Source: Chthoniobacterales bacterium
Lineage (GTDB): Bacteria; Verrucomicrobiota; Verrucomicrobiia; Chthoniobacterales; Chthoniobacteraceae
Length of the DNA stretch: 26,637 nucleotides
Reading direction: 5' to 3'
Assembly (NCBI GenBank): GCA_038260125.1
Contig: JBBSOD010000001.1
Location: 1 to 26,637, forward strand
Position numbers and translations under genes: made by a program. Below the pieces are notes generated by a model that saw only the letters and a list, made by a program, of their open reading frames with translations, ran no database searches and was not told the origin of the DNA. Below, one piece after another: positions 4,660 through 25,646 of the stretch (its first letter is position 1; every line of letters begins with the position of its first letter).

Positions 4660-5892
4660 CTAGCGCGACAGCCATGCGCTGGCGAAGAGCCACACCGAGG
4701 CCGCGCCAGCCGTCAGCAGCAGGATATAGCGGCGGCGCCAGCACAGCTCGACGGCCAGTCCGGCCAGGATGAGGGCAAAGGGCACCAGATAGCCCGAGCC
4801 TGGAAGGGATGAAACGAAGGCGGAGCGCGTAAGGAGCGAGTGCCCGACCATCTCGGCCAGCAACAGCGTCGCGCCCGCGATGGCCAGGATGCACGCCGCG
4901 ACATATCCCGCCCCGCGCCGCCGCTGGAAGGTAAGCATATTGACCACCGCCCCGCAGGCCAGTGTCCACCCGGCCCACCAGCCCAGATCGGCCTGCGCAA
5001 TCCAGATCTCGAAGCGGAAGCGATCCGGCTCGGGATACGCCGTCGGGTTCAGCCGGGCGAGCGTCCCGCCAAAAGCCTCCAGCGCTGCGGCGAAGGCCGC
5101 CGGATCGGCTCCGCGGAAGGCCTGCTTCATCCGCTGCAACGACTCTGGCACGGACTGACCGAGGGGGCCGGGATAAAGCGCGGGAGCGTCTTCCGCCGGC
5201 CGCCACTCGCCTCCGGCGCGCGGCGGCACTACCCGCAGTGCGCTGCCGTCGCGGATCTCGCGGAACGCTTCCAGCCGCCGCGCCAGACCGAGGACCAACC
5301 GCTGCCGGCGCGACAAGGCGGCCGGCCCGCTCCCGGCGCGCGTCGCCCGGGCGTCGGCGACCAGTTCTGGGAGCCGGGTGCGCCGGGTCAGCGTCTCGTA
5401 GGTCTCGCGGGACGCCGCCTCGGGCAGGCCTAATGCGCGCCGCAGGTCGGCATCGTTCACCTGAATGAGAGGCTGGTCGGTCCAGCTTTCGGGGTTCAGC
5501 CAAAGCGACGCGATGACCGTCGTAGCGGACAATTCGTCGTAAATGGAATCGCGATAGCTTTCTGAGCCGGAAATCGCGGCCAGCTTCTGACGGGCAAAGA
5601 AATAGAACGGACCGGGCCGGCCCTCGACGAAGACCGGCAGCTTTTCGAGCGGATCCAGATCCATGCGCGCGGGCAGGATGCTGCGCGGGGGCGTCGAGGG
5701 CTGTTGCGGCGGAGTCGGCGTGGCACCCGGCGAGGGGGCCGCCGGGGTGGCGGGCGTGGCCGTGCCTTTCAGCGTGTCGGTTTTACCCTTCGGTTCCGCA
5801 GCGCTTGCCCCACCCAGGATACCCAGAATTATTGCGAGCCCGAGCGCTTGGCCCCCCAAGGCTCGAGCTAGGAAGTCGCGGGCGGATACCAT
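4660..5892 (-). CDS. CcsA/CcsBA-like membrane protein containing only the N-terminal periplasmic part and first TM helices; no WWD domain
   Basis: Signal peptide, then LPVFVEGRPGPFYFFARQKLAAISG, LRVVPP...W and YPEPDRFRFE, resembling the periplasmic domain of fused system II cytochrome c synthases, then ~4 TM segments and a stop. ATG 5892. Confidence 0.55.
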   Translation of the reverse strand: MVSARDFLARALGGQALGLAIILGILGGASAAEPKGKTDTLKGTATPATPAAPSPGATPTPPQQPSTPPRSILPARMDLDPLEKLPVFVEGRPGPFYFFARQKLAAISGSESYRDSIYDELSATTVIASLWLNPESWTDQPLIQVNDADLRRALGLPEAASRETYETLTRRTRLPELVADARATRAGSGPAALSRRQRLVLGLARRLEAFREIRDGSALRVVPPRAGGEWRPAEDAPALYPGPLGQSVPESLQRMKQAFRGADPAAFAAALEAFGGTLARLNPTAYPEPDRFRFEIWIAQADLGWWAGWTLACGAVVNMLTFQRRRGAGYVAACILAIAGATLLLAEMVGHSLLTRSAFVSSLPGSGYLVPFALILAGLAVELCWRRRYILLLTAGAASVWLFASAWLSR

Positions 5893-6329
5893 CGGTAGAG
5901 CATCAGATACACGATCACGCCCGTCACGGAAACATACAACCACACCGGCAGCGTGATCCGCGCGATTCGACGGTGTTTATCGAAACGCCGACGCAGGGCC
6001 GGAATCAGCGTGAGCATCACCAGCACCGGCGTGATGGCCGCCAGCACGACGTGCGTAAGCAGGATGACTTTATAGAAGATTTCCGGCGCACCCCCGGCCG
6101 TGAAACGAGTCACCAGCCCCGCCTTCAGCCAGTGATAGGTAACGTAGCTCGTCAGAAAAAGGGTCGAGACCGCCACTGCGCTCAGCATGCAGGTCACGTG
6201 CGCCGCGATCTGCCGCCGCCGGATGAAAAACCACCCGGCACAGAGCAAAACCGTCGCGATGGAATTCAGCGTGGCGTTGAGTCCCGGCAGCATTTGCTGA
6301 TAAGGCGTCAGGATTTCGCGCAGGCTCAT
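5868..6329 (-). CDS. DUF420 / CtaM-like oxidase assembly membrane protein
   Basis: LPGLNATLN...AHVTCM...FLTSYVTYH...ILLTHVVLA...HRRIARITLPVWLYVSVTGVIVYLML. ATG 6329. Confidence 0.9.
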   Translation of the reverse strand: MSLREILTPYQQMLPGLNATLNSIATVLLCAGWFFIRRRQIAAHVTCMLSAVAVSTLFLTSYVTYHWLKAGLVTRFTAGGAPEIFYKVILLTHVVLAAITPVLVMLTLIPALRRRFDKHRRIARITLPVWLYVSVTGVIVYLMLYRWYPPATS

Positions 6330-6330
6330 A

Positions 6331-6987
6331 TTACTGCATCGCCTGGCCGATGTCCTGGGCCAGTTGCCGCACTTCCTCGATTTTTGTGGCGTCGTAGTAA
6401 CCGCGGATGTTGCCCGCACGATCGACCAGGATCAGACGGTTCGTCGGATTCAGGGCAAGCGCGGGATTTTCCCAGTCCGGCGCGCGCGGCAACCGGAAGC
6501 CTGCACTCATCACGCGCCCGATCTCCGCCCGTTCTCCGGTGAGGAAGACCCACTGTCCCGTTTTGCGATGCTTGCGCGCGTATTCGCGGAGCCGCGCGGG
6601 CGTCTCGCGCTCCGGGAAGCGGGAAAACGTGACGAGCTTGGCCTGCGGCAGGTTCGCGATGACATTCTGCAACTCTTCCAGCCGAAGGACGACGAGCCTC
6701 GATTCCTTGTCTTCGCCCGCCGTGGCGAAGCTCGCGACCCACGCGTAGCCGCGCAAATCCTCGGATCCGAACGGGGTGCCGTCGCTGTCCTGCAGCGAAA
6801 ATTCGGGTGCCGGGCTATAGACCGCCAGCGACCTCACCTCGGTCTGGCGCGCCCGGTCGGCCTTGTAATAAACCGTGGCGACAGCGAAGAGCACCAGCAC
6901 GACATGCAGCCAGAGCAGCGCCGGGAACCAGCGGTTCGCGGGGCGCGCCGGGGCCATGTCATCGTCGATTTCCAGCGTCTCTCCCAT
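6331..6987 (-). CDS. Sco1/SenC-fold protein lacking the copper ligands
   Basis: N-terminal TM and Sco patterns (APEFSLQDSDG, WVASF, PERETPARLREYA, WVFLTG, ILVDRAGNIRGYY). The protein has no Cys. Confidence 0.85.
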   Translation of the reverse strand: MGETLEIDDDMAPARPANRWFPALLWLHVVLVLFAVATVYYKADRARQTEVRSLAVYSPAPEFSLQDSDGTPFGSEDLRGYAWVASFATAGEDKESRLVVLRLEELQNVIANLPQAKLVTFSRFPERETPARLREYARKHRKTGQWVFLTGERAEIGRVMSAGFRLPRAPDWENPALALNPTNRLILVDRAGNIRGYYDATKIEEVRQLAQDIGQAMQ

Positions 6988-6990
6988 CTT

Positions 6991-7902
6991 TTAGAAATGC
7001 ACGAAAACCATCAGACCCAGAATCACCGGCAGATAAACGATCGACGAGAAAAAGAGCCTCCGGGCCGAAGCGCGGGAGCGGTCGGTCACGAAGCGGACTG
7101 CGTAGTAAAGCAGCAGTCCGTCGATGGCCAGCGCGATCCCGACATACACGAGGCCCGCCCACCCCAGAGCGAAAGGCATGAGCGTCACACCCGCCAGGGC
7201 CACCGCGTAAAGCAGCGATTTCCAGGCCGTGGCCGCGCCGTCGGTGTCGCGCACGTTCAGCATGTGGAAGCCCGCCTGCGCATACTCGTCGCGATACATC
7301 CAGGCGATGGCGAGAAAATGCGGAATCTGCCAAAGAAAGAGCACGCCGAAGAGAATCCACGCCCCCGCGCCCGTGGCCGGTCCGCCGGCGGCCGTCCAGC
7401 CGATAACCGGCGGAATCGCCCCCGAGACCGCGCCGACGGTCACACAGACCGGGCTGACCCGTTTCAGCGGAGTGTAAATCGCGAGATAGATCAGCAGCGT
7501 GGCTGCCGCCAGGAGCGTCGCGGTCGGATTCGTGGTGAAGGCCAGATAAGCCAGCCCCGCCACTCCGCACGCCGCGCCGAGAGCGATGGCCTGCTCCGAC
7601 CGCCAGCGCCCGGCCGGCAGCGGACGGGCCTTCGTCCGTTCCATCAGCCGGTCCACCCGCACCTCGATCGCCTGATTCAGGATGGCCGCCGCCGCCGCCA
7701 CCAGCGCCGTGCCCACCAGCGTGTGCAGCAGCCGCACCCAGTCCAGCGGGCCCGGCGACGCCAGGCAGAAGCCGACGAAAGTCGTAATCAGCATCAGGAG
7801 ATTAAGGCGCGCCTTGGTCAGAACCATCAGGTCAGCCATCATGCTGGCGTCATCCGTTTCCAGGAGGGGCTCCTCTACCGTGCGCGAGATTTCGCTTTTC
7901 AA
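6991..7902 (-). CDS. ctaB: Protoheme IX farnesyltransferase (heme O synthase)
   Basis: LTKARL, NQAIEVRVDRLMERTKARPLP, YTPLKR, GAIPPVIGW and WQIPHFLAIAWMYRDEY. TTG start overlaps the ctaA stop (TTGA); ATG 7842 is the alternative. Confidence 0.93.
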   Translation of the reverse strand: MKSEISRTVEEPLLETDDASMMADLMVLTKARLNLLMLITTFVGFCLASPGPLDWVRLLHTLVGTALVAAAAAILNQAIEVRVDRLMERTKARPLPAGRWRSEQAIALGAACGVAGLAYLAFTTNPTATLLAAATLLIYLAIYTPLKRVSPVCVTVGAVSGAIPPVIGWTAAGGPATGAGAWILFGVLFLWQIPHFLAIAWMYRDEYAQAGFHMLNVRDTDGAATAWKSLLYAVALAGVTLMPFALGWAGLVYVGIALAIDGLLLYYAVRFVTDRSRASARRLFFSSIVYLPVILGLMVFVHF

Positions 7903-8861
7903 GCAGCGCCCTCCGCTACGGAAGATTCGGGTCCATTCGCGAAACGCGCACGGTGGCTCCCGATCCCGTTCGCCGCCAGCGCCAGCCGCGTGCGAAGAGC
8001 GGCTGCTGTGGCCAGGATGAGAGCGCCGTTCACGACATGGAAGGTGGTCGGAACGGGCGCTTTTGCAAGCCAGATGACACTCGCCCCCAGCATGACCTGC
8101 AAGAGCACGAGACCAAGGAGCAGGCAGGCCGGGCGCAGCAGCCTCCCCTCCCCGCGGGTCGTGCGCACCGCGGCCACCGTGAGCGCGAAGATGGTCCCGA
8201 GAACGACCAGAGCGCCGATCCGGTGAGTGAAATGGATGATGACTGGAAACGTGTCCAGCGGTGGAATCCAACCTCCGAAGGATGTCGGGAAATCAGGGAT
8301 GATCAGCCCCGCTTTGAAGTGCCGCATGATCGCGCCGACGACAAGTTGAGCGTAAACCACCACGATGGCCAGCGACGCCAGACGGGTCAGGCCGGCACGC
8401 TCCCGGCCGGAGACATCCCGGCGCGGCGACAAGGCGGTCGCCAGCACCACCAGTCCGGCCAGGACGGCCTGCGCCAGACACCCGTGAAACACCGCCAGCG
8501 AGAGCGAGCGTTCCGTCACCCTCAGCCCGCCCAGCACGCCCTGCACGCTCACGCCAAGCAGGGCCGCGATCGCCAGCCAGCGCACCCAGCGACGGCTCTC
8601 CGTGCGCCATGTCCAGATGGTTAGTCCGATAATGAGCAGCCCGAGCGTCGAAGCGATCAGCCGGTGTCCGTGTTCCAGGCGGACATTCTCGATCTGCCAC
8701 CAGCCGGCGGGGTTGATGCTCCCGTAGGATAGCGGCCAGTCCGGCACGGCCATGCCGGCCTGTTTACTCGTGACCATCCCGCCCACGAAGATGAGTGCGA
8801 GGGTGAAAAGAACACAGAGCCAGGCAAAGCGCGCGAGCCAGACGGAGCGGGGCGGGTTCAT
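7899..8861 (-). CDS. ctaA: Heme A synthase (CtaA/Cox15), type without the N-terminal Cys pair
   Basis: GGMVTS..AGMAVPDWP, EHGHR, FHGCLAQ, HFTHR and FHVVNG; 8 TM segments. Confidence 0.92.
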   Translation of the reverse strand: MNPPRSVWLARFAWLCVLFTLALIFVGGMVTSKQAGMAVPDWPLSYGSINPAGWWQIENVRLEHGHRLIASTLGLLIIGLTIWTWRTESRRWVRWLAIAALLGVSVQGVLGGLRVTERSLSLAVFHGCLAQAVLAGLVVLATALSPRRDVSGRERAGLTRLASLAIVVVYAQLVVGAIMRHFKAGLIIPDFPTSFGGWIPPLDTFPVIIHFTHRIGALVVLGTIFALTVAAVRTTRGEGRLLRPACLLLGLVLLQVMLGASVIWLAKAPVPTTFHVVNGALILATAAALRTRLALAANGIGSHRARFANGPESSVAEGAA

Positions 8862-8891
8862 CGGAGTGCCTCCAAGATCGAATCAGAGTGG

Positions 8892-8972
8892 GATGATCGG
8901 CTGGAAGCCGACGCCACGACCGCGGCTGAGCACTTCTCTTTCCTTCGTGGCGTCGGCTTCCAGCCGATCATC
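8892..8972. repeat. Inverted pair of GTGG-type REP-like elements
   Basis: Perfect 28-bp inverted repeat (8892-8919 / 8945-8972) with a 25-bp spacer. Each arm is GTGG + CGTCGGC-TTCCA-GCCGATC. Confidence 0.85.
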
Positions 8973-9173
8973 ATCTTCTGAATAGATACCACGCCCGTCC
9001 TTGAAATTTCTTTCGTCCTCAAACTCCAGTTTGGGTGCGCAATGTCCGCGGAAATTCTGTTTCGCGGACGTAACCGCGTAACGGGAGGCACAGGCGAGGC
9101 GCTCTTTTTTTGGATGAGACGAAGACTTGCATCTCAGTCTGGACTAGCGGAGAAGTCCCCGCCGGGCCATCCA

Positions 9174-10139
9174 CTATTCCTCCCGCGCCGGGGCGGGCTC
9201 GCCAGCGGATTCTGCTCCTGCTCCGGGCTGCCGCGCGGAGGTCGCGGCGGCGTCTTCGTTAGCCGGAGGCAAAGGCTCCTTCACCTGCGCGGCGGCGGGT
9301 TGCTCAGAAGGCTCGAAAGTCGTGCCGCCCTGCGCGGCGGGCTGCCCGACATCCTGCGGCTCACCGGGCGAAGGTGCGGTCTGGCCCTGCGGGGCAGGTT
9401 TGGGAATCAGCGCCGCCATGTCCGTCTGCCACTTGCCGTAATCCTCCGCCGTGTCCACCGTCAGCAGGCCGCGCATAGCGTAATGCCCCAGTCCACACAA
9501 CTGCCCGCAGATAATTTCGTATTCGCCCGCTTTCGTCGGCGTAAACCACACCGGAATCATCTGCCCGGGAATCGCGTCCTGCCCCACCCTCATCGCCTGG
9601 ATGGAGACGTTATGAATCACGTCCTTGGCCATGATCTCCAGAATGACTGGCTTGTTCAGCGGGGTGTGCAGATCGTTCGTCACCACTAGATCGTCCGCCC
9701 CTTCCGGCGTGGAACGGTCGAGTCCGATCGCGTTCGAGGCATCGACGAGTTCGATCTTGCGCGGCCCGAATTTTTTGTCCGCGCCGGGGTAGTGAAAGAT
9801 GAAGTTGAACTGCTGCGCGATCACCCGCACGCGTTCCGCCTGCTCCACCGGAAACTCGTTCACCCGTTTCGCCCAGAGCGGAAAAGCGAACCCGATCAGC
9901 AGCACCGCTTCCACGATCACCACGCTCACTTCCAGGTGCGTCGTGATTTTCGTCTTCGCACCGTAGTAGTTCGCACGGGGATGGCGCGATTTGTGAAAAC
10001 GGAAGAGGACATAGACCAGAAAAATACTCCAGCCCATGAGCAGGATGAGCACTTTCCAGTGCACAAACTCCAGCATCTGATCGATGTGGATGCCGTGCTG
10101 AGAAGCATTGGGAATGAGGCCGAGAAGTCTGTTCAGCAT
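9174..10139 (-). CDS. coxB: Cytochrome c oxidase subunit II (CuA) with Pro/Ala/Gln-rich C-terminal tail
   Basis: Two TM helices, DVIH and CGQLCGLGHYAM CuA motif. Confidence 0.95.
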   Translation of the reverse strand: MLNRLLGLIPNASQHGIHIDQMLEFVHWKVLILLMGWSIFLVYVLFRFHKSRHPRANYYGAKTKITTHLEVSVVIVEAVLLIGFAFPLWAKRVNEFPVEQAERVRVIAQQFNFIFHYPGADKKFGPRKIELVDASNAIGLDRSTPEGADDLVVTNDLHTPLNKPVILEIMAKDVIHNVSIQAMRVGQDAIPGQMIPVWFTPTKAGEYEIICGQLCGLGHYAMRGLLTVDTAEDYGKWQTDMAALIPKPAPQGQTAPSPGEPQDVGQPAAQGGTTFEPSEQPAAAQVKEPLPPANEDAAATSARQPGAGAESAGEPAPAREE

Positions 10140-10154
10140 TTCTAAATATCGAGG

Positions 10155-10388
10155 CTAGGCGGAATCAGTGGGCGGCAGGCCGTTCGAATGGCGGCCGAGA
10201 TAGACCATAAAAACGACGATGCACGCGAGCACGACCCCGAGCACCGCCAGCAGGGCCAGGATGGCGTAACTGAGTGCCTTGGTGTCGGCGGAAGTGGGCG
10301 AGCCGAAGCAGACGGCGCAGGCCTGCGCGGAACCAGTCAGCCCCATCCAGAGCAGTGCAGTCAGCAGCAGAGTCCATCGCGCGCTCAT
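10155..10388 (-). CDS. Small exported membrane-anchored CxxC protein of unknown function
   Basis: Signal peptide ending SAQA, then CAVCFG, then one TM helix. ATGA-coupled to the upstream gene. Confidence 0.8.
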   Translation of the reverse strand: MSARWTLLLTALLWMGLTGSAQACAVCFGSPTSADTKALSYAILALLAVLGVVLACIVVFMVYLGRHSNGLPPTDSA

Positions 10389-10585
10389 AGCACTCCTTTT
10401 GTTTTCCGGATAAAAACCACTTCGTAAACCACCAGCGTCGCGGCCGCGACCAGCGAACCCAGCGCCGCGGCCAATGAAAAACCCGCCCCTGTCTCCAGAT
10501 AACTCAGCAGCGCACCCGTCGCGCAGCCCAGAATCATCAGGACCGCCACGGTGATGAAGAGAATATGGAAGGCTTTTAGCGACAT
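10385..10585 (-). CDS. Small two-TM membrane protein of unknown function
   Basis: MSLKAFHILFI...; two hydrophobic helices; tightly packed in the operon. Confidence 0.75.
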   Translation of the reverse strand: MSLKAFHILFITVAVLMILGCATGALLSYLETGAGFSLAAALGSLVAAATLVVYEVVFIRKTKGVL

Positions 10586-10588
10586 GGA

Positions 10589-10936
10589 TCAGTGCGGCAG
10601 GCGGATAGGATCCCAGTAGTGCAGCCAGGTCAGAAAAAACAGACCGCAGGCAAAGAAGACGGTGAACGCGAGCAGCACGTAGATCTGCCGCCGCTCGTGA
10701 TTCAGGTGCATGAAGATCAGCGCCACCAGCCCGGCTTTAACCGTGGCCACGATCATCGCGATCACGATGTTCGCCTGCATCGAGCCGAAGTCGAAATAGG
10801 ACAACGCCACCGTCACGCCCGTCAGCACGAGCAGCGCGCCGAAGACCAGCATGTAGGCGCGCACATGCACCGTGACGGCGGCGTGCTCGTTCTCGTGACC
10901 CGGCTGCGAGTGAGTCGATGGAGTGCTCATGCTCAT
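10589..10936 (-). CDS. ctaF: Cytochrome c oxidase subunit IV (CtaF/CyoD-like)
   Basis: YMLVFGALLVLTGVTV...IATVKAGLVALIFMHL; three TM helices. Confidence 0.9.
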   Translation of the reverse strand: MSMSTPSTHSQPGHENEHAAVTVHVRAYMLVFGALLVLTGVTVALSYFDFGSMQANIVIAMIVATVKAGLVALIFMHLNHERRQIYVLLAFTVFFACGLFFLTWLHYWDPIRLPH

Positions 10937-11875
10937 TTACAGAAGATAAAAGATGGGAAACACGAAAATCCAGACCAGATCGACGAAGTGCCAGAACAAG
11001 CCGGCCACTTCGAGGCGGTTGGCCAGGTGCTCGGGCTCTGCGTCATACATTTTGCGGCTGCGGAAAAAGAAATAAGTGAAGACCACGATGCCGCCGAAGA
11101 CGTGCAGGCCGTGCAGCCCGGTGATGGTGAAATAGGTCGCAAAATAGTTGCTGTGCTTCGGCAGGAAAGCGGTCGCCCAGAGCACATCCTTCGCCTCGAC
11201 ATGGGCCTGCTTTTCCGACGGCGGCTTGTGCCAGAAATGCGGGCGATCGTTCGCCGGATTGGTCGGGTCGGCGTTTTCCGTATCCAGATTAATATGATAG
11301 CCGAGAATCTGCACGCCCTTCTCCTGCGCCAGGTGCGACACCTCGGAAGGCGAATGAATCTCCACTTCCTCCTCCCGGCCGTCGCGCGAGATATCGACCG
11401 CGTGCAGGTGCCCGGTGATCTCGGTCCGCGGAGCGAGTCCCTTTTTGGCCAGATGTTCGTTGCCCAGATAGGGCTCGTATTTCAGACGGGCCTCCTCTTT
11501 CAGATAAATGCCGAAGTGATCGAACTTCTGCGGATATTCGTAGGCGAGCTTCACTACGAGGAAGATCAGGCCGCACACGATAGTCGCGCCCAGATACACG
11601 AGGTAGTGAGTGTAGCGGCGCATTTTGAGCGAGGCCCAGGCCATGACCACCGTGACCGACGAGAGAATCAGGATGGCGGTGTTCATCGTCCCGACCGGGA
11701 CATTCAGCAGCCCGTGCGGCCAGAAACCCGGCTCAGCCCCAAGCCGCAGGAAGACGTAGCCCGAGAACAGGCCGCCGAAGAGCATCACTTCCGAAGCCAG
11801 AAACAGCCAGATGCCGATCTTGGCGTTCCAAAGCTGCGTGTCCGGCCGCGGCGTTACGGTGTAAGGAATTTCCAT
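10937..11875 (-). CDS. coxC: Cytochrome c oxidase subunit III (short five-TM type) with a large loop insertion
   Basis: GIWLFLASEVMLFGGLF, NTAILILSS, TGLHGLHV and GLFWHFVDLVWIFVFP. Confidence 0.95.
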   Translation of the reverse strand: MEIPYTVTPRPDTQLWNAKIGIWLFLASEVMLFGGLFSGYVFLRLGAEPGFWPHGLLNVPVGTMNTAILILSSVTVVMAWASLKMRRYTHYLVYLGATIVCGLIFLVVKLAYEYPQKFDHFGIYLKEEARLKYEPYLGNEHLAKKGLAPRTEITGHLHAVDISRDGREEEVEIHSPSEVSHLAQEKGVQILGYHINLDTENADPTNPANDRPHFWHKPPSEKQAHVEAKDVLWATAFLPKHSNYFATYFTITGLHGLHVFGGIVVFTYFFFRSRKMYDAEPEHLANRLEVAGLFWHFVDLVWIFVFPIFYLL

Positions 11876-11887
11876 AGCAGTCTCTCG

Positions 11888-13777
11888 TCAGGCACGGGGC
11901 TGGGTTTCGGGCGAATCCACCATCGCCTGATCGACCAGATTCGGTCGCGCTTTTTCGGTGACGCCATCGCCTCGCAGCGTCTCCGTTTTCTCCGGTAGCG
12001 GCAGCCATTGCGGGCTGAAATCGGCCGCCACTTCGGGATGGCTGTACTCGTAAGGCCCGGTGTAAGCGGAAGGCTGGGTCGCGAAGTTGCCGTGCGGCGG
12101 CGGCGAAGGCGCGGCCCATTCGAGCGTGGTCGCGTCCCACGGATTGTCCGAGACCAGGCGGCCGAACTTGATGCTCAGGAAGAAATTCAGAATGAACGGG
12201 ATCTGGAAGAGCCCCAGAATGAAGGCTGACCAGAACATGAAAGGATTCCAGTGCAGCACATTCTGCGTGAGATCCCAGCCCGCGCCGCCGTCATACCAGC
12301 GGCGGTGCATGCCCGCCATGCCCTGCAGAAACATCGGAAAGAATATGCCGTTCATGCACGCGAAGGAGCCGAAGAAATGCACCCGCCCCCAGAACTGGTT
12401 CATGTTTCTCCCCACCGCCTTCGGGTACCAGTAATAAACGCCCGCGAAGATGGCGAAAATCGTCCCGGGCGCGACGATGTAGTGAAAATGCCCGATGACG
12501 TAGTAGGTGTCGTGCAGGTACAGACCGATCGAGTTGAAGGCCAGCGGAATGCCGGTCAGACCGCCCAAGCCGAACATGGGCAGGAAGCCCGTCGCGAAAA
12601 GCATCGGCACGGTGAACTTGATCGAGCCGCCCCAGAGAGACATCAGCAGCACAGTCACGATGACGACCGACGGCACGGAGATCAGGACCGTCGTCGTCTG
12701 GAAAAAGGTGCTCACCTTACTCCCCATCCCGGTCAGATACATATGATGCGCCCACACCACGAAGGAGAGAAACCCGATGCCCATCGTCGAATAGACCAGG
12801 CCCTTGTAGCTCCAGAGCGGCTTGCGCGTGCCGTTGGCGATCACGTCGCCCACGATGCCGAGGCCCGGCAGGATGAGCACATAGACCTCGGGATGCGCCA
12901 GGAACCAGAAAAGATGCTGCCAGAGCAGCGGACTGCCCCCGCCCGCCACCGCCCACGGCTGGCCGTTCACCACCAGACCCGACGGCATAAAGAAGCTCGT
13001 GCCCGCCACCCGGTCCATCAGCTGCATAAAGCTCGCGGCTTCCAGCGGCGGAAAGGCCAGCAGCAGCAGATACGCCGTGACCATCTGAGCCCAGACAAAA
13101 TACGGCATCCGCATCCAGCTCATGCCGGGCGCGCGGAGCTGGATGATCGTCGTAATGAAATTGACCGAGCCCAGCAGTGACGACGTGATGAGCATGACCA
13201 TGCCCAGGAGCCAGAACGTCTGACCGGTCATCCACATGTTCTCGTGCAGCCCGTTGACCGCTGCCAGCGGCGAATAGGATGTCCAGCCCGATTTGGCCGC
13301 CCCGCCCGGCACGAAGAAGCTGACCAGCATGATCACGCCGCCCACCGCAAAGGACCAGAAGCTGGCCATGTTGATCTTCGGGAACGCCATGTCCGGCGCG
13401 CCGATCTGGAGCGGCACCACGTAGTTGCCGAAGGCCGCGAAGGCCACCGGCACGATACCGAGAAACACCATGATCGTTCCGTGCATCGCGCCCAGCTCGT
13501 TGTAGAAATCCGAAGCCATCACGCCGTCCTTAAACGCCTCTTCGCCGAGCACGTTCTCCACTATTTTCCCGATGATCGGCAGCGGATCGCCCGGATAAGC
13601 GAGCTGCCAGCGCATCAGCATCATCAGCCCGAAGCCGAAGAGGAGAAAGGACAGGCCGGTGATGCCGTACTGGATCCCGATGACCTTGTGATCGGTCGAA
13701 AAAACGTATTTCTGCCACCACCCCAGTTCATGGTGATCGTGGTGTTCTTCGTGATGATGAGCGGAGGCGCTGTCCAT
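11888..13777 (-). CDS. coxA: Heme-copper oxygen reductase subunit I, A1 type
   Basis: DHKVIG, MHGTIM, GAPDMAFPKIN (D-channel), WFLAHPEVY, VWAHHM, GHFHY and GMHRR. Start at ATG 13777. Confidence 0.97.
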   Translation of the reverse strand: MDSASAHHHEEHHDHHELGWWQKYVFSTDHKVIGIQYGITGLSFLLFGFGLMMLMRWQLAYPGDPLPIIGKIVENVLGEEAFKDGVMASDFYNELGAMHGTIMVFLGIVPVAFAAFGNYVVPLQIGAPDMAFPKINMASFWSFAVGGVIMLVSFFVPGGAAKSGWTSYSPLAAVNGLHENMWMTGQTFWLLGMVMLITSSLLGSVNFITTIIQLRAPGMSWMRMPYFVWAQMVTAYLLLLAFPPLEAASFMQLMDRVAGTSFFMPSGLVVNGQPWAVAGGGSPLLWQHLFWFLAHPEVYVLILPGLGIVGDVIANGTRKPLWSYKGLVYSTMGIGFLSFVVWAHHMYLTGMGSKVSTFFQTTTVLISVPSVVIVTVLLMSLWGGSIKFTVPMLFATGFLPMFGLGGLTGIPLAFNSIGLYLHDTYYVIGHFHYIVAPGTIFAIFAGVYYWYPKAVGRNMNQFWGRVHFFGSFACMNGIFFPMFLQGMAGMHRRWYDGGAGWDLTQNVLHWNPFMFWSAFILGLFQIPFILNFFLSIKFGRLVSDNPWDATTLEWAAPSPPPHGNFATQPSAYTGPYEYSHPEVAADFSPQWLPLPEKTETLRGDGVTEKARPNLVDQAMVDSPETQPRA

Positions 13778-13909
13778 GCTGGTATAAGCGAATCTAATGT
13801 TTAGCACAGGCCCGGCGGTCGGACAACCGGACTTTGCTCAGAATTGAAAGGGACATTTGCCATTCGACTGTCCCAGTGAAAAAGGCGCGCGGGCCGCAGG
13901 CGGAATGAC

Positions 13910-14731
13910 TCACGAAGCCGCCCCCCCCTCGGCTGCGGGAGGAGCTTCTCCGGCGGGCGGAGCGCCGCCCGGCAGCGTATCGTTTTCGGGAATGGCGAGC
14001 AAATCTTCTTCCGTCATGGCTCCGGCATGTCCCTGCAACGCCGCGCGGGCCGCCGCCATCTGCTCGGGTGTGACCGGCGGGGCACTGTTCCCCCAGGCCT
14101 GTCGGATGTAGGTCAGGATGTGCGCGATCTTTTCGTCCGTCAGGGTAGGTCCCCAGGCCTGCATGACACCCGAATAGGCCTGCTTCTGGCCGTTGATCGT
14201 GATCGGCCCGGCGAGTCCATGCAAGAGGATCGAGGCCAGGCGCTTGTTGTTGCCGGTCACCCATTCGCTCCCCGCGAGCGGCGGATACTGCCCCGCCGCG
14301 CCTAGTCCGGTCGCCTGGTGACAGGTCGTGCAGTTCTGCTTGTAAAAGATCTCCCCGAGCTGCGGCGAAGTTTTTTCCGTCTGCTCCTCACCTTTCCCGG
14401 CGCCGTCTCCCGACGCGAAAAACATCCCCGGATCCCAGCGCCGCTCGCTGTAAACGTCGCTCCGGAAAGCGCCGCTGAAGAGCATGAGATAGCCGCCGGC
14501 CCAGAAGATGGCCGCGCCGCACAGAATGATCAGCCACAGCGGAAACGTGCCGAGCGATGCCTCCCCTTCGCGCCGCAGGGATGGCTCCGGCTTTTCGCGC
14601 TGGACCGCGTGCTGATGCGTGATGTCCTGGCCTTCGGTGTAATCCACCTCGCCGGTCATTTCCCCTTCGGGATACTTCTGCGGCGTCAGCTCGGGCGGAA
14701 CTTTCCCCGCTAGTTCGTCACGATTCTTCAT
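13910..14731 (-). CDS. Membrane-anchored class I monoheme cytochrome c
   Basis: One TM helix, CTTCH, YPPLAGSEWV and axial Met in GVMQAW. Confidence 0.92.
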   Translation of the reverse strand: MKNRDELAGKVPPELTPQKYPEGEMTGEVDYTEGQDITHQHAVQREKPEPSLRREGEASLGTFPLWLIILCGAAIFWAGGYLMLFSGAFRSDVYSERRWDPGMFFASGDGAGKGEEQTEKTSPQLGEIFYKQNCTTCHQATGLGAAGQYPPLAGSEWVTGNNKRLASILLHGLAGPITINGQKQAYSGVMQAWGPTLTDEKIAHILTYIRQAWGNSAPPVTPEQMAAARAALQGHAGAMTEEDLLAIPENDTLPGGAPPAGEAPPAAEGGAAS

Positions 14732-16916: not shown

Positions 16917-16942
16917 CTCAAAAAACGAAAAGTCACTGATTT

Positions 16943-17578: not shown

Positions 17579-17580
17579 CG

Positions 17581-18777: not shown

Positions 18778-19499
18778 TATTGCGGGCCTCCCTCGGCAGG
18801 TGCGGCGGGTTCAGGCGCGGGTTGGTCGAGCCGGGCGAGTTCGTGAGCGGGCACATCTTCCGCGGTCGCATTCACTCCGCGCTGCAAAGCGCGCAGGTAG
18901 GCGATGATGGCCCAGCGGTCGGGCACGGTGATATTTCCACCGTAGGAGCCCATGTTGCCTTTGCCGTGCGTGATCGTGTCGAAAATCTGTCCGTCCGGCA
19001 GCGCGCTGACCCGGGCGTCGATAATCGGGACGATGGTGGCGAGGCCGTATTGTTTAATGATGCCGTTGCCTGCGCCGGTCTGGCCGTGGCAGATGGCGCA
19101 ATTGATATTGAACCGCTCCCGGCCGCGCTCCATCACCTGCATATTCAAATCGAGCGGAATGCCATTGCCCCAGTTTTCGCCAATCTTCCCGGTGTCTGTA
19201 TAGTCCAGCCCGTTGCTGAACCCGGCCGGCTTTACCGTCACGCGGCTGTTGCTCGCGGAGGTGGTAAATGCGACGCCCGGATTGGCGTAGCCGCGCGGCA
19301 CGGTGCCCGCGACCGGTTCCCGCTGAACCTTGCCGTCGGCGAAGAAATCGCTCTCGTGCTGCGGACGGTATTTCGGCTGATCGTCCATATCCGGCAGAAT
19401 CTCGATAGGCGGACGCGTGCTGTGTGTGCCGCGGAAACCCGCGATGGCCAGCACGGCGATCACACCGATAAAGAAGAGGGCGAAGAAGTAGCGCAGCAT
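18777..19499 (-). CDS. actE: ACIII subunit ActE, monoheme cytochrome c
   Basis: DMDDQPKYRPQ..SDFFADG, GTVPRG, CAICHG, HGKGNM and DRWAIIAYLRALQ. Confidence 0.92.
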   Translation of the reverse strand: MLRYFFALFFIGVIAVLAIAGFRGTHSTRPPIEILPDMDDQPKYRPQHESDFFADGKVQREPVAGTVPRGYANPGVAFTTSASNSRVTVKPAGFSNGLDYTDTGKIGENWGNGIPLDLNMQVMERGRERFNINCAICHGQTGAGNGIIKQYGLATIVPIIDARVSALPDGQIFDTITHGKGNMGSYGGNITVPDRWAIIAYLRALQRGVNATAEDVPAHELARLDQPAPEPAAPAEGGPQ

Positions 19500-19501
19500 C
19501 T

Positions 19502-20050
19502 CTATTCCTCGACCAGGGTGACGTATTTTCCGCCGATCTTCTCGAGGAAGTCGCGGGTGCGGGTTTCGGCAAATTTAGGATCGCGCGACTCGATCACGAG
19601 GAAAAATCCATCGTCGGTCACGCGGGAAAAGCGATCCCAGTTAAACATGGGGTGATACCATTTCGGCAACTGATTGAAGACCAGCATCGCGAAGAACGCG
19701 GTAAAGGCGGAAAACAGAATGGTCAGCTCGAACATGATCGGCATGAAGGCCGGCACGGTGAAGAAGTCGGTCGGCTTGGCGTTGACCACCGTCTTGTATT
19801 CGATCAGAGCCGGATACATAGTCAGCGCCGTCGCGGTGAGCAGACCCGCGATGCCGCCAGCGAGAACCGGCGCGCTGAGCCAGGATTTTCCGAGGCCCAT
19901 CGCCTTATCCATCCCGTGGATCGGGAAGGGCGAATGGACATCCCAGCGCTTGAAACCTTCGTCGCGCACCTGTTCAGCCGCCTCGAAGAGCGCCTTCGCG
20001 GTCGAGAACTCCGCCGCCACTCCGTAGATTCGTTTAGGTTCGGCGATCAT
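19502..20050 (-). CDS. actD: ACIII subunit ActD (DUF3341)
   Basis: AEF...DVHSPFPIHGMD, PAFMPIMFELTILF and DDGFFLVIE. ATG 20050 is coupled to the actC stop. Confidence 0.92.
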   Translation of the reverse strand: MIAEPKRIYGVAAEFSTAKALFEAAEQVRDEGFKRWDVHSPFPIHGMDKAMGLGKSWLSAPVLAGGIAGLLTATALTMYPALIEYKTVVNAKPTDFFTVPAFMPIMFELTILFSAFTAFFAMLVFNQLPKWYHPMFNWDRFSRVTDDGFFLVIESRDPKFAETRTRDFLEKIGGKYVTLVEE

Positions 20051-21495
20051 TATTCGGTCACCTCCGTGGAATGAGCGTCCATCCCGATCTGCGCGTCTTC
20101 GACATGGTGATGCGGATCGGCCTCGGGGCTGACCAGTTTCACCTCGGACATGGCGATCATGGGCAGGAAGCGGATGAAGAGCAGGAAGAGGGAAAGGAAA
20201 ATACCGAACGTGCCGATGAAGGTCCAGATCTCCACCCACGACGGGTGATACATGTGCCAGGCGCTGGGCAGGAAGTCCTGCACGATGGAAGTCACGATGA
20301 TGACGAAGCGCTCGAACCACATGCCCGCGTTGACAAACATGCAGACGATGAAAACCACAATCAGATTTCTCCGCATGCTGGGGAACCAGAAGATCTGCGG
20401 CGAAATTACATTGCACGTCATCATGCAGATGTAGGCCCAGACGTAGGGACCGCCCACGATGCGGTTCCAGAAGGCGGCGCGCTCGAAGGGGTTCGCGCCA
20501 TACCAGGCGATGAACAGCTCCATCAGGTAGGCGTAGCCCACGATCGAGCCGGTCAGCAGGATGATCTTGCACATCTTATCAACGTGCGCGGGCGTGATGA
20601 GATCCTTCAACGCGGGGTAAATGAGCCGCGCGGGCAGCATGATCGTCAGCACCATGGCGAAGCCGCCGAAGATGGCGCCAGCGACAAAATACGGCGGGAA
20701 AATAGTGGTGTGCCAGCCTGGGACAATCGAGGTCGCGAAGTCGAACGACACGACGGAATGCACCGAAAGCACCAGCGGCGTAGAGAGACCCGCCAGCAGC
20801 AGATAGGCCATTTCATAGTGCCGCCACTGCCGGTTCGAGCCGCGCCAGCCCAGCGCGAAGATGCCGTAGATGACCTTCTTAATCTTGCTGGTGGTGCGGT
20901 CGCGCAGGGTGCCAAGATCGGGCACCAGCCCGGTGTACCAGAAGAGCACCGACACCGAAAAATAAGTCGAGACCGCAAAGACATCCCAGAGCAGCGGGCT
21001 GCGGAAGTTCGGCCAGATGGCGTTGGCGTTTGGCACTGGTGCCAGGAACCACGCCATCCAGACGCGGCCAACGTGGATGCCGGGGAAAATACCGGCGCAG
21101 ATCACCGCAAAGAGCGTCATCGCTTCCGCCGCGCGGTTGATCGAGGTGCGCCATTTCTGGCGAGTCAGAAAGAGAATGGCCGAGATCAGCGTCCCGGCGT
21201 GGCCGATGCCGATCCAGAACACGAAGTTGGTGATGTCCCAGGCCCAGCCGACGGGGTGATTTTCTCCCCACACGCCGACACCGGTCGAAATCTGGTAGCC
21301 GATGCAGAACAGCCCGATCATGGCGATGGTCGAGCAGATCAGAAACGACACCCACCACCACAGTTTCGTCGGGCCTTCCACGATCCCGGCCACGTTTTCC
21401 GTGACCCAGTTCAGACTGCGGTTGTTGGTGATGAGCGGCGGACGCTGGACCGCCGCGATCTCTTTCGCCGTGGGTGGCGGCAAGGTGCGAGCCAT
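20050..21495 (-). CDS. actC: ACIII quinol-binding subunit ActC (NrfD/PsrC family)
   Basis: [57 protein letters not shown] and [16 protein letters not shown]. Confidence 0.96.
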
Positions 21496-21519
21496 TAGCG
21501 TGAACCCTCCGTATGCAAC

Positions 21520-21710
21520 CGTGGCATCGGCATCCTGCCGATGATTCTGGTCTGACTTTCAGTGCAGCCGTGGCAGCTAGATAAAAATGTCCGATACATC
21601 ACGCGCTGACCTCCGTGAAGTTAGTGGCTGGATGATTGGCTGGAAGCCAACGCCACGGGGGACAGGGAAAACTCCGCGGCAGGCGTGGCGTCGGCATCCT
21701 GCCGATCATC
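21520..21710. repeat. Cluster of three GTGG-type REP-like units between actB and actC
   Basis: Units at ~21520-21545 (+), 21631-21657 (-) and 21684-21710 (+). The last two form an inverted pair. Loops are ATCCT or TTCCA. Confidence 0.85.
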
Positions 21711-21765
21711 CACTTCTGACATTCAGAGCAAGCGTTCATTCTGCGGGAAAAGTGTGTCGAAATGC

Positions 21766-24700
21766 TCACGCGCCCACCTCCACTGCGGGCTGCGAAATGG
21801 GCTCGTTCGGCCCATGATGACTCTCCGGACTGCCGTGCTCCTCTTCCATATAGGCCGCTGGTTCGTGCGCGCCGGGCATGGCCGGGTTGAGGTTGCGGAT
21901 CCGGGCCAGATAACTCACCCGCGCTTTCACATTCAGATAATCGAGCAGCCGGTAATTGCGCGCGTCTCCCTTTAGTTTCGACACCTTGCTGTCGAGATTC
22001 ATCAGGTCGCCGAAGACGATCGCCTCCGACGGACACGCCTGCTGACACGCCACTTGGAAAACATCCACCGGAATTCTGATGTCGGGCGAGGACCCCGCCC
22101 GCACCTTTGCCGTGATCTTCGCCTCCTCGATCCGCTGCAGACAGAACGTGCATTTTTCCATCACGCCGCGCATCCGCACGGTCACGTTCGGATTTTTCTG
22201 CATCTTCACCGTGTCGGGCGAACCCTTCTCGGTCAGCGGTCCGAAATAGAGACCCTGCGCCTTGATCGGCCCCATCTGCATCTGCTCGATGGGCCGGGAA
22301 TTGTAGTCGAAGAAATTAAAACGCCGCACTTTGAACGGGCAGTTGTTCGCGCAATACCGCGTGCCGATGCAGCGGTTGTAGGCCATCACGTTCAGCCCCT
22401 CGTTGTTGTGCACGGTCGCGTTTACGGGGCAGACCGTCTCGCACGGCGCGTTCTCGCAGTGCTGACACATCATCGGCTGCGAAATCATTTCCGGGTCGTC
22501 TTCGTGGCCCTCGCGCGTTGCGTAGTAACGGTCCAGACGGATCCAGTGCATCTCGCGCCCGCCCATCACCTGAGTCTTGCCCACGACCGGGATGTTGTTT
22601 TCCGCCTGACACGCCACCACGCAGGCGTTGCAGCCGGTGCAGGTGTTCAGATCGACCGTCATGCCCCACTGCTCCGCGCCGTCGAGCGGCGGGTTGGTGT
22701 AAAGCGATTCCATCCCGGCGTCGGGATTTTCCGCGTCCATCCACATTTTCTGCGCGAACTCAGGATGCTCGTCGTATTTTGCCTTCGAGCCTTCGCGGAT
22801 TAACGCCCGGCCTTCCATGCTCCAGTGGTCCTGAGTCACGCCGAGCGGATAAGAGCCGCCGGTCTTCGTGATTTTCGCGCCGGTTAGAATGTAGGGCGAG
22901 TCGCTCAACAGCAGCGGAAATGCGTCCACGCCGCTGCCCGAAGCCACGCTGCCGATCATCCGGCGGCCGTAGCCGAGCGTCACCGTGATGGAATGATCCG
23001 CGTGTCCCGGCGAAATCAGCACGGGCATCTCGATCGACCGGCCGGCCACTTCGATCCTGATAATGTCGCCCGCCGTCGCCCCGCCCAGCACCCCGTTAGG
23101 CGCCTCGATTTCATAGCGGTCCGCCATCGCCTGATTCATCAGCGCGACGTTATCCCACGTCATCTTCGTGACGGGATCCGGCGTCTCCTGCAGCCAGCTC
23201 ACGTTGGCCCAGCTTCCGTAGCCCAGCTTGTAATCCGGCACCAGCACCACCTCCACCGCGTCCGCCGAAGCGGGCCGCAGTGGCTTTCGGTTGCCCGCAC
23301 CTTCGTCCCGTCCGCCGCTTAGCGAGAGCGCGCGCGGGGCTCCGGCGCTGTCTTTTTGAAAACCCGTCCGCAACAGCTCGTTCCACGCTTCGTCGAACGC
23401 CGCGCCGCTCGCGCCGGAGCGCTCCTGGAAAGTTTCCTGCACCCGCGCCGGACCGTGCGGATGCCCGTCGCCCGCCAGCATAGAGAGCAAATCGTTTTCC
23501 GACCAGCCGTCGTAGAGCGGCAGGATCATCGGCTGCATTGCGAGGTAGCTGCCGTCCGCCGCCAGCCCGTCGCCCCAGCTTTCCAGATAATGCGCAGCCG
23601 GCACATGCCAGCGGCTGACCGACGTGGTTTCGTCGTAGTTCAGCCCCAGCCGGATCGTTTCGGGCACGGCTTCCTGCAACTTCACCCAGCCCAGATCGGC
23701 GGGCGCATTGTAGGCGGGATTTCCTCCGAGAATGAAAAGCGTTTTGACCTGCTTGACTCCCATCTGCCACGCCAGATCGGTGATCGTCGCCGCCGGTTCC
23801 ACGTCCGACTGCTGGCCTTCCAGCGTCTGACCCAGCCCGCCGAGCGCCTGATTGATGGCCAACGCCGCCCGCTGCACCGCCGCCGGCTGCCGCGGACCCA
23901 CCGCCACCAGCGCCCGACCGCCCGCCGCCTTCAGATCCTTGGCCGCCTCGCGAATCCAGCCCTCGGGAAAAGTCACCCCCGCGGCCGCTTCCAGCCCGCC
24001 CGCCGACGCGCCCAGTTCCGCCGCCAGTTGCCGCGTAAACTCGCCCACATGACTGGCCGGGAGCCGCAGCCGGTGATCCGCCATGCCGCCGGTGATCGTA
24101 TAATGATTCTCCACCGCGTAGAGGCGGTTCATTTTGCCGCCGCCGTCCTGCTTCACCCCGCGCCGCCGCGCAAAATCGCGCTGATACCGCCCGCTCGCGT
24201 CCTCCGTGCCCAGCAGATCGCAATCCAGCGTCAGAATCACATCCGCATTCGCCACATTATAACTCTCTTGGACGCCCGGACCGAAGGCCGCACCCGCACC
24301 TGACAGCCCGCCCGGCTCATAGACCGCCCACATCGCCTGCGGAAACCGCTGCAGCACTTTTTTCCGCAGCCGCTCGCGCGTCGGCGAATTGCTTTCCTCC
24401 AGCAGCAGCGCCATTCCCGCGCCGCCGTCGCCTTCATGCCGGGCCAGCAGCTTCTCCAGATGCTTTTCGAAAATTTCCGCCTGCACCTGCTCCTTGTCGC
24501 GGATGAAATTTTTCGCGCGATCCGGATCGTAGAGCGCCAGCACCGAGGCCTGAACCTGCATGTCCGAACCGCCGTTGCTGGCCGGATGCTCCGGATTTGC
24601 ATCCACCTTGATCGGACGCCCGTCCACTGTCGTCACGATCAGCGGGATCGCCCCGCCCGCCCGCGGCATCGAGCTCGCGTAGAAAAGATTTTTGCCCGGA

Positions 24701-24972
24701 ATCGTCCACTCCGAGCTCTTGACGAACGGCAGCAGCTTGTGCTCGGGGCGGCGGCAGGCGGCCAGACCGAGCCCCGCCAGCGCCGTCGAAGCGCCCATCA
24801 GTTTCAGGAAACTCCGGCGCGTCACTCCGTCCATCTCCAGCTCGGCGGCTCCGGCCGGGAACTCGCGGGCCAGCGCCTCGCGGAAGTCAGGCGTGTCCGC
24901 CAGCTCAGCCGGGCTCTGCCAGTAACGGCGCTCGGACTTCGGGGCGGGCGGGTGGTGGAAAATTCGTTTCAT
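21766..24972 (-). CDS. actB: ACIII subunit ActB (molybdopterin-oxidoreductase-like domain plus Fe-S domain)
   Basis: YWQSPAEL N-terminus, Tat motif TRRSFLK followed by LAAC, and four Cys clusters (CTGCNACVVAC, CQHCENAPCETVC, CIGTRYCANNC, CTFC...CQQAC). Confidence 0.96.
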   Translation of the reverse strand: MKRIFHHPPAPKSERRYWQSPAELADTPDFREALAREFPAGAAELEMDGVTRRSFLKLMGASTALAGLGLAACRRPEHKLLPFVKSSEWTIPGKNLFYASSMPRAGGAIPLIVTTVDGRPIKVDANPEHPASNGGSDMQVQASVLALYDPDRAKNFIRDKEQVQAEIFEKHLEKLLARHEGDGGAGMALLLEESNSPTRERLRKKVLQRFPQAMWAVYEPGGLSGAGAAFGPGVQESYNVANADVILTLDCDLLGTEDASGRYQRDFARRRGVKQDGGGKMNRLYAVENHYTITGGMADHRLRLPASHVGEFTRQLAAELGASAGGLEAAAGVTFPEGWIREAAKDLKAAGGRALVAVGPRQPAAVQRAALAINQALGGLGQTLEGQQSDVEPAATITDLAWQMGVKQVKTLFILGGNPAYNAPADLGWVKLQEAVPETIRLGLNYDETTSVSRWHVPAAHYLESWGDGLAADGSYLAMQPMILPLYDGWSENDLLSMLAGDGHPHGPARVQETFQERSGASGAAFDEAWNELLRTGFQKDSAGAPRALSLSGGRDEGAGNRKPLRPASADAVEVVLVPDYKLGYGSWANVSWLQETPDPVTKMTWDNVALMNQAMADRYEIEAPNGVLGGATAGDIIRIEVAGRSIEMPVLISPGHADHSITVTLGYGRRMIGSVASGSGVDAFPLLLSDSPYILTGAKITKTGGSYPLGVTQDHWSMEGRALIREGSKAKYDEHPEFAQKMWMDAENPDAGMESLYTNPPLDGAEQWGMTVDLNTCTGCNACVVACQAENNIPVVGKTQVMGGREMHWIRLDRYYATREGHEDDPEMISQPMMCQHCENAPCETVCPVNATVHNNEGLNVMAYNRCIGTRYCANNCPFKVRRFNFFDYNSRPIEQMQMGPIKAQGLYFGPLTEKGSPDTVKMQKNPNVTVRMRGVMEKCTFCLQRIEEAKITAKVRAGSSPDIRIPVDVFQVACQQACPSEAIVFGDLMNLDSKVSKLKGDARNYRLLDYLNVKARVSYLARIRNLNPAMPGAHEPAAYMEEEHGSPESHHGPNEPISQPAVEVGA

Positions 24973-25646
24973 CGGTGACAGCCCGAGCAGTTCTGTGGCG
25001 GATTCACGCGCCAGGCATTCTTGAGTTTCAGGCCGATCTCGCGCTGCGACTCGATCGCGTTGCCCGACCCATCGACCGGCGGATGCCAGGCCAGATTAAA
25101 GACCTCGCTCTGCGGCCGCAGATGATTCTCGGGCGCGCGGTGACAGTCCAGACAGAAACTCATGCTCAGCGGTTTCTGGTGCGAGACCACCTTCATTTCA
25201 TTGACCGGGCCATGGCAACTGAAGCAGCTCACTCCCCGGTTCACGTGCACCGAGTGGTTGAAATAAACGTAGTCCGGCGTCTTGTGCACCTGCACCCACG
25301 GGATCGGCTGGCCCGTTTCCACGCTCTGGCGCACCGTGGCCAGCTTCGGGCTGTCCCAGAGCACCCCGCCCTCGCGATGGCAGTTGTTGCAGGTCTGCGT
25401 GTTCGGCACGTTCGAGTGCGCGCCCACCTCCACGAAACTGTGGCAGTAGCGGCAGTCCATCCCGAGCTGCGCCACATGCACATCGTGCGGAAAAGCCTGC
25501 GGCTGGTTCGGCTCGTAGCCTACCCGCGTGTATTTCGGCGTGAAATAATACCACACGCCAGCCGTCACCGTCCCGCCGAGGATCAGCAGGCAGAGAATAA
25601 TCTTGAGCGGAAGAAAATTCGTCCAGCGCGGGAAAAAGTTCGCCAT
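24969..25646 (-). CDS. actA: ACIII pentaheme cytochrome c ActA
   Basis: One TM helix and five CxxCH motifs (CRYCH, CNNCH, CFSCH, CLDCH, CSGCH); YVYFNHSVH. ATGA overlap with actB. Confidence 0.96.
   Translation of the reverse strand: MANFFPRWTNFLPLKIILCLLILGGTVTAGVWYYFTPKYTRVGYEPNQPQAFPHDVHVAQLGMDCRYCHSFVEVGAHSNVPNTQTCNNCHREGGVLWDSPKLATVRQSVETGQPIPWVQVHKTPDYVYFNHSVHVNRGVSCFSCHGPVNEMKVVSHQKPLSMSFCLDCHRAPENHLRPQSEVFNLAWHPPVDGSGNAIESQREIGLKLKNAWRVNPPQNCSGCHR

Follow-up and report, generated by a model that had tools for sequence, protein, structure and literature searches.

Do losses of textbook residues that lie side by side in one operon share a cause? The question is raised by a 26,637-nucleotide stretch of contig JBBSOD010000001.1 (assembly GCA_038260125.1; "the window" below means this whole stretch) from a bacterium of the verrucomicrobial order Chthoniobacterales. 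The names of its nearest named homologues, and the soil metagenome runs in which its sequence occurs, indicate a soil member of this order. The stretch carries a respiratory cluster that encodes alternative complex III (ACIII), a cbb3-like module, an aa3 oxidase, haem A synthesis and assembly factors. An original prediction, made from the sequence of the window, held that the CcoN-like, Sco-like and CcsA-like proteins of this cluster are ligand-less, that CoxA lacks its K-channel Lys, that none of these genes is frameshifted, and that the losses were concerted. Alignment confirmed all four states, and no frameshift or internal stop was seen in any of the four genes. The evidence does not support concerted loss: the four changes date from very different times and form a mosaic of unrelated events rather than one remodelling. 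We consider it probable that the cluster is typical of its order, consisting of ACIII, a cbb3 module with a cofactor-less CcoN, an aa3 oxidase without the Lys, haem O and haem A synthases, and degenerate Sco and CcsA proteins, with losses that are unrelated to one another.

Four states at different depths

Up to 20 kb around the CcoN-like gene was taken from 60 genomes, 30 of the same order and 30 of other orders of the class. Residue states were scored on alignments for each locus, and the oxidases considered were those adjacent to ACIII. Below, G000 is the genome of the window, G001 a congener, and G002, G018, G023 and G030 are relatives. Gene order was preserved in 22 of the 30 same-order loci. 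The module formed by ActABCDEF, the CcoN-like and CcoO-like proteins and a cytochrome c is conserved across the class.

The CcoN-like protein matches P. stutzeri CcoN (3MK7_A; E = 3.2e-28) over residues 33-459, which is the whole membrane core, and has none of the six His ligands: H60 is replaced by Q81, H207 by G222, H257 and H258 by P272 and A273, H345 by L360, and H347 by Q362. Tyr251 of helix VII is retained as Y266. The protein scores 124.8 bits with the NCBIfam ccoN model (TIGR00780), below the cut-off of 583.15. Among 61 CcoN-like sequences, 26 have all six His and the Tyr and, judged by sequence, resemble genuine C-family oxidases, and 35 are ligand-poor. Ligand-poor sequences occupy three places in the gene tree (3 state changes), namely a clade of 25 sequences from the family of the window and at least seven other families (Shimodaira-Hasegawa-like approximate likelihood ratio support 99), a clade of 10 sequences from another order (support 100), and a single sequence nested among liganded CcoN. 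A tree that constrains them to a single clade is worse by 95 log-likelihood units, and one common origin is thereby rejected (approximately unbiased test, p 0.006). Loss of the CcoN ligands is old and recurrent, with at least three origins. The CxxCH motif is retained in the CcoO-like protein at every locus with a complete gene, and in the third cytochrome at every locus where this was found.

Two explanations of the ligand state were tried and rejected. The first tied the loss to an adjacent aa3 operon or to a second CcoNO fusion in the genome; for either feature, both CcoN states were found in its presence and in its absence, and there is no clean association. The second took the CcoN-like family for an Asn-for-His variant of the nitric oxide reductase type; its liganded relatives carry the canonical WWxGHN motif, and the published nNOR is related to the B family. 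Literature searches returned no description of a ligand-less CcoN, which does not show that there is none.

Lys-less CoxA marks a whole oxidase lineage. In an ungapped alignment of helix VIII to P. denitrificans CoxA (1AR1_A), Ile383 (codon at 12659-12661) stands at K354, and the Ser of helix VI is Gly; the six His, the cross-link Tyr, the Glu and Tyr of HPEVY and the D-channel Asp are all retained. Every CoxA orthologue of 61-74% identity (families f1, f3, f15, f20 and f24) has Ile, Leu or Val at the Lys position, and Lys is present in a second oxidase type of 43-46% identity (f2, f4, f6, f7, f12 and f13). The state of CoxA is mirrored in the second transmembrane (TM) helix of CoxB. Seven residues past the conserved helix 2 Glu, 20 of 20 Lys-less loci have Glu (Asp once), compared to Pro in 9 of 9 Lys-bearing sequences, the second oxidase of the same genome included. 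Because the acidic residue sits in CoxB helix 2 seven positions above the Glu at the K-channel entrance, the channel has probably been rebuilt and not lost. Variants of the K channel and its repeated loss in family A have been discussed and catalogued before (PMC8239418). The CuA site of CoxB is complete (H, C, C, H, M), with the first His in DVIHN and the remaining ligands in C-G-Q-L-C-G-L-G-H-Y-A-M.

The Glu of the canonical C-x-E-x-C motif at the CuA/Mg site is Gln in the CoxB of the window and in both oxidase types beside the module in relatives (C-G/A/S-Q-L/I-C-G). A second CoxB, on contig C13 of the same genome, retains this Glu.

The Sco-like protein passes the Pfam SCO1-SenC cut-off (34.2 bits against 22.8). 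In alignment to B. subtilis Sco (1ON4) and to 4HDE, E92 and S96 stand at the CxxxC cysteines and Asn180 at the His; the Sco-like protein contains no Cys at all. The operon Sco keeps CxxxC and His at 22 loci. Neither remains in G000 or G001, a shifted CxxC without the His is left in G018, and the loss in G030 is independent. The CcsA-like protein (P0004, 427 aa, no Pfam match) aligns to residues 107-423 of a 638-aa CcsA in G002 (27% identity over 317 aa, E = 5e-26). That full-length copy is syntenic, follows the DUF420 gene and carries the WWD block as WGRFWDWDPKE. P0004 ends before the block and is without the C-terminal third of CcsA; the WWD domain (PF01578) gave no Pfam match in it, and no remnant lies downstream. 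Full-length CcsA, with open frames of 543-679 aa, was found in every relative searched outside the genus that had a readable contig, and the same truncation occurs in G000 and G001 only. The changes in Sco and CcsA are recent and almost exclusive to the genus.

Canonical copies of both proteins exist elsewhere in the genome of the window, a Sco with CPNIC and the His on contig C14 and a full-length CcsA on contig C83. The genome has two ACIII-oxidase systems, the cluster of the window and an ACIII-caa3 system on contig C13. The latter (C13:20-11000) runs from ActB to ActF and continues with a Sco-like gene, a CoxB that has a CxxCH cytochrome c domain, a CoxA with Lys and HPAVY, and Cox3.

At one locus (L022; G023:C4:577587-597586) the CoxA and Sco regions align poorly, CoxA having 44% identity and unreadable ligand columns. 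The G023 genome is 67% complete, and the poor alignment may reflect a frameshift or an assembly problem.

The four changes lie at four different depths and do not travel together. At the family level, the CcoN and Lys states occur in all four possible combinations: Lys-less CoxA stands beside fully liganded CcoN in f3 and f15, and Lys-bearing CoxA beside ligand-less CcoN in f7 and f13. The check that the original prediction had proposed, co-occurrence of the four losses across genomes, thus found losses that are private or independent, which that prediction had itself named as evidence against concert.

Layout of the gene array

An open reading frame (ORF) listing combined with Pfam, NCBIfam and PDB sequence searches gives 20 well-supported, co-oriented genes on the minus strand, from 25646 to 4660. 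They are listed here in the order of the array.

25646-24969, minus strand: ActA, pentahaem cytochrome c of ACIII (five CxxCH; Pfam Cytochrome_C7 and c3).
24972-21766, minus strand: ActB, iron-sulphur and molybdopterin-like subunit with a twin-arginine translocation signal (794 bits to R. marinus ActB, 6F0K_B; Fer4 domains).
21495-20050, minus strand: ActC, NrfD-type quinol-binding membrane subunit (Pfam NrfD, E = 1.4e-20).
20050-19502, minus strand: ActD (Pfam ActD, E = 4.6e-57; start ATG at 20050).
19499-18777, minus strand: ActE, monohaem cytochrome c (one CxxCH; Pfam Cytochrome_CBB3).
18777-17581, minus strand: ActF, second NrfD-like membrane subunit (236 bits to ActF, 6F0K_F).
17578-16943, minus strand: 211-aa single-pass membrane protein with a Pro/Ala-rich tail, in an ActG-like position (weak same-position homologues in many relatives; no Pfam or NCBIfam match).
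16916-15447, minus strand: CcoN-like protein without the six haem/CuB His ligands, Tyr266 kept.
15450-14728, minus strand: CcoO-like monohaem cytochrome c (Pfam FixO, E = 5e-27; one CxxCH).
14731-13910, minus strand: membrane-anchored monohaem cytochrome c, CcoP-like (Pfam Cytochrom_C; weak ccoP match; one CxxCH).
13807-11888, minus strand: CoxA, A1-type subunit I with Ile383 at the K-channel Lys (Pfam, NCBIfam, alignment).
11875-10937, minus strand: Cox3, with a long soluble insertion (Pfam COX3).
10936-10589, minus strand: Cox4, prokaryotic subunit IV (Pfam COX4_pro).
10388-10155, minus strand: 77-aa exported protein with one TM helix and an A-C-x-x-C motif.
10139-9174, minus strand: CoxB, with a complete CuA site, no cytochrome c domain and an extra buried Glu77 (9909-9911) in TM helix 2 (Pfam, NCBIfam, alignment).
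8861-7899, minus strand: CtaA, haem A synthase (Pfam COX15-CtaA).
7902-6991, minus strand: CtaB, haem O synthase (Pfam UbiA, E = 3.5e-58; start TTG 7902 or ATG 7842).
6987-6331, minus strand: Sco-fold protein without CxxxC or His (Pfam SCO1-SenC).
6329-5868, minus strand: DUF420 membrane protein (Pfam DUF420, E = 2e-40), which we take to be a CtaM-type oxidase assembly factor.
5943-4660, minus strand: CcsA-like P0004, truncated to the periplasmic domain and the first TM helices, without the WWD domain (the start may be ATG 5892).

The original prediction had counted 21 co-oriented genes, many with overlapping stop and start codons. The array and the overlaps stand, and the twenty-first gene would have to be one of the doubtful small ORFs. 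Five or six junctions overlap: ActA/ActB and CcoO-like/cytochrome c by ATGA, ActC/ActD and ActE/ActF by a single nucleotide in TAATG, CcoN-like/CcoO-like by TTGA provided that TTG 15450 is the start, and possibly DUF420/CcsA-like. The remaining junctions are mostly 0-12 nt. Larger gaps separate ActB from ActC (~270 nt), Cox4 from the 77-aa mini-ORF (200 nt) and CoxB from CtaA (312 nt), and internal promoters could sit in them. Scans of the coding strand for promoter and terminator consensus sequences gave nothing above shuffled sequence, and an Rfam scan of the window returned tRNA only. The 270-nt gap between ActB and ActC (21496-21765) is unusual for an act operon; it has no Rfam match, and its sole ORF, of 56 aa, is not protein-like. 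Two ORFs of the raw list, 21599-22153 and 13794-14264, were rejected: they overlap real genes in other frames, their non-overlapping remnants of 56 and 39 aa are not protein-like, and the tiny ORFs 21599-21769 and 13794-13913 are doubtful genes.

All six core subunits of ACIII (ActA-F) are present: pentahaem ActA, the iron-sulphur subunit ActB, two NrfD-like subunits, ActD and monohaem ActE. Besides its single TM helix, the 211-aa protein between ActF and the CcoN-like gene has a charged segment and a Pro/Ala-rich tail of ~110 aa. It is fast-evolving, with 62% identity between congeners and a ratio of nonsynonymous to synonymous substitution rates (dN/dS; computed throughout between G000 and G001, two species of the genus of the window) of 0.25.

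Cox3 (312 aa) carries a soluble insertion of ~110 aa between helices. Its open frames are mostly 280-360 aa in Lys-less clusters, although outliers exist, compared to 201-239 aa in Lys-bearing ones. The 77-aa protein has an invariant A-C-x-x-C just past its signal peptide and is conserved upstream of CoxB in 7 relatives, all of the Lys-less type and six of them with an intact Sco. The idea that its CxxC replaces the lost Sco thiols was considered and set aside: the motif also occurs in those six genomes with an intact operon Sco, which leaves specific compensation unsupported. At the left flank, beside the end of the cluster, lie a tRNA-Ser gene (4168-4255, plus strand), a tyrosine integrase gene (2960-4165, minus strand) and an IS4/5-type transposase gene (2105-2944, plus strand).

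Weighing the explanations

If the cluster is a typical one with unrelated losses, electrons may take the following path. Menaquinol would be oxidised by ACIII, and electrons would pass through its Fe-S centres and the ActA and ActE haems to the haems c of the CcoO-like and CcoP-like proteins, held on the redox-dead CcoN shell. From there they would reach CuA of CoxB, haem a, haem a3/CuB and finally O2. Since CoxB has a complete CuA site without a cytochrome c domain of its own, some membrane-bound cytochrome c must link ACIII to CuA, and the obvious candidates for this relay would be the two haem-c subunits left from the former cbb3 oxidase. The CcoN ligands would have been lost in an ancestor common to many families, with at least two further losses elsewhere in the class, and strong selection would have maintained the shell, most probably as a scaffold. 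Consistent with such constraint, the dN/dS of the CcoN-like gene is 0.10, which indicates strong purifying selection and is similar to that of ActF (0.09); ActD has 0.095. In the lineage in which Lys became Ile, Leu or Val, the channel would probably run by way of the acidic residue of CoxB helix 2, with Glu77 substituting for the Lys in the window. The operon Sco and CcsA would have degenerated only in this genus, where the canonical copies can do the chemistry, and would have evolved faster since then, but not neutrally.

Several points weigh against this account. The dN/dS values of the Sco-like (0.23) and CcsA-like (0.28) genes are not those of neutral sequence but are rough, because dS for these genes (~1.1-1.2) is near saturation. 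The predicted complex of the CcoN-like and CcoO-like proteins speaks for the account, with a score of 0.86 compared to 0.00 for the best of 3 controls (of 78 solved complexes 51 attain this mark, of 108 mismatched pairs 2), but it is likeness and not proof, because solved cbb3 complexes exist and the prediction may simply reproduce them. No liganded CcoN was found in the genome of the window, an absence that is weak because the assembly is 84% complete. Ligand-less CcoN also occurs at loci without an aa3 operon in the fetched downstream flank (family f19), which a scaffold role does not explain. The covariation of Lys and the CoxB Glu divides two oxidase lineages and may therefore represent only one or two evolutionary events. 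Finally, the sequencing runs that hold the sequence of the window are DNA runs from soil metagenomes only, with no RNA run among them.

A bolder possibility, which we put forward tentatively, is that the CcoN shell, free of cofactors, acts together with its two haem-c subunits as an obligatory adaptor that docks on ACIII and passes electrons to a separate oxidase, here the Lys-less aa3 with a K channel through the Glu of subunit II. If so, at least three losses of the cbb3 active site, with the shell always kept, would point to a second, non-catalytic role of cbb3 in verrucomicrobial respiratory supercomplexes, and many "cbb3 oxidase" calls in soil genomes would be wrong.

Alternatively, the cluster could be a redundant respiratory branch in the process of being lost while a canonical ACIII-caa3 system, Sco and CcsA persist elsewhere in the genome. 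We regard this as unlikely. The existence of those canonical copies is in its favour, as are the truncation of CcsA and the divergence of the Sco-like and CcsA-like genes, which evolve fastest in the cluster (65% and 59% congener identity, compared to 83-94% for ACIII subunits). Ongoing decay is, however, difficult to reconcile with the absence of stops and frameshifts, with dN/dS values of 0.06-0.31 in every gene compared, with the persistence of ligand-less CcoN and Lys-less CoxA in many families, or with a CoxA that retains every redox ligand and the D channel. The original prediction had also argued against random decay, and here it holds up: gene order is preserved, the CcoN-like, Sco-like and CcsA-like genes are under selection, and the acidic residue of CoxB (Glu or Asp) covaries with the state of CoxA.

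We think it very improbable that the four changes co-evolved as a single adaptation and yielded a lineage-specific ACIII-aa3 supercomplex. The four states do lie in one co-oriented cluster free of frameshifts, and loss of the Sco motif was seen only at loci where CcoN is already ligand-less (4 of 4 sampled), but the CcoN and Lys states combine in every way, the CcoN loss recurred independently, and many families share the CcoN and Lys changes, whereas those of Sco and CcsA do not extend beyond one genus (except for Sco, partly in G018 and also in G030). There is as little reason to believe that the CcoN-like protein has a new catalytic function, with cofactors still bound by non-canonical ligands: it retains the fold, the Tyr of helix VII and a few His, among them H398, which is conserved in all groups, and one or two original His persist in some ligand-poor relatives, but the alignment of the ligand-less clade contains no newly conserved His, Met or Cys, the replacement residues differ between genomes, and haem/Ca-environment residues with at least 95% conservation in liganded CcoN vary in this clade.

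Significance and comparison with known systems

We return to a cluster typical of its order, in which unrelated losses have probably accumulated. Several textbook residues may be missing from a single operon without a common cause: here the losses combine ancient lineage traits, a compensated remodelling and young degeneration of redundant copies. Inferences about O2 affinity from cbb3 annotations in abundant soil Verrucomicrobiota are unsafe, because such genes here cannot bind haem or copper. The Lys-less aa3 and its co-varying subunit II Glu amount to a natural experiment on a proton channel that model enzymes cannot do without. To what was known, the window adds a direct test of the independence of the changes, the multiple origins of CcoN ligand loss, the pairing of Lys and CoxB states within one sample, and the canonical back-ups of Sco and CcsA.

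The Sco-like protein resembles Sco1/SenC (B. subtilis 1ON4) in matching the thioredoxin-like Sco fold at the sequence level, and differs in having neither Cys nor the His ligand. P0004 matches the N-terminal two-thirds of system II CcsA and occupies the same position as the full-length copy of G002, but it is without the haem-handling WWD domain. The aa3 oxidase has the redox ligands, cross-link Tyr, HPEVY Glu, D-channel Asp and CuA site of A1-type enzymes (P. denitrificans 1AR1, R. sphaeroides 1M56); unlike the canonical forms, it has Ile for K354, Gly for the helix VI Ser, and Glu for Pro in TM helix 2 of CoxB.

As in the cbb3 oxidase CcoNOP of P. stutzeri (3MK7, 5DJQ), the middle module has the 12-helix CcoN fold at the sequence level, a monohaem CcoO partner, a third c-type cytochrome and a predicted interface between the N and O subunits. 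It differs from that oxidase in the 0 of 6 His ligands and the lost haem/Ca environment of its CcoN-like protein, and in a third subunit that is monohaem instead of dihaem.

ACIII-oxidase clusters, as the original prediction acknowledged, and ACIII beside cbb3 genes in Verrucomicrobia are already known, the latter from Methylacidiphilum, where the two are co-located (PMC6688271). The window shares with Methylacidiphilum, with Rhodothermus marinus ACIII (6F0K) and with the ACIII-aa3 supercomplex of Flavobacterium johnsoniae (6BTM) a full set of strongly matching ActABCDEF genes with oxidase genes directly downstream on the same strand. Unlike those systems, it has three modules in one array, the middle one with a cofactor-less, cbb3-derived core, and an aa3 oxidase that has neither a fused cytochrome c domain nor the K-channel Lys.

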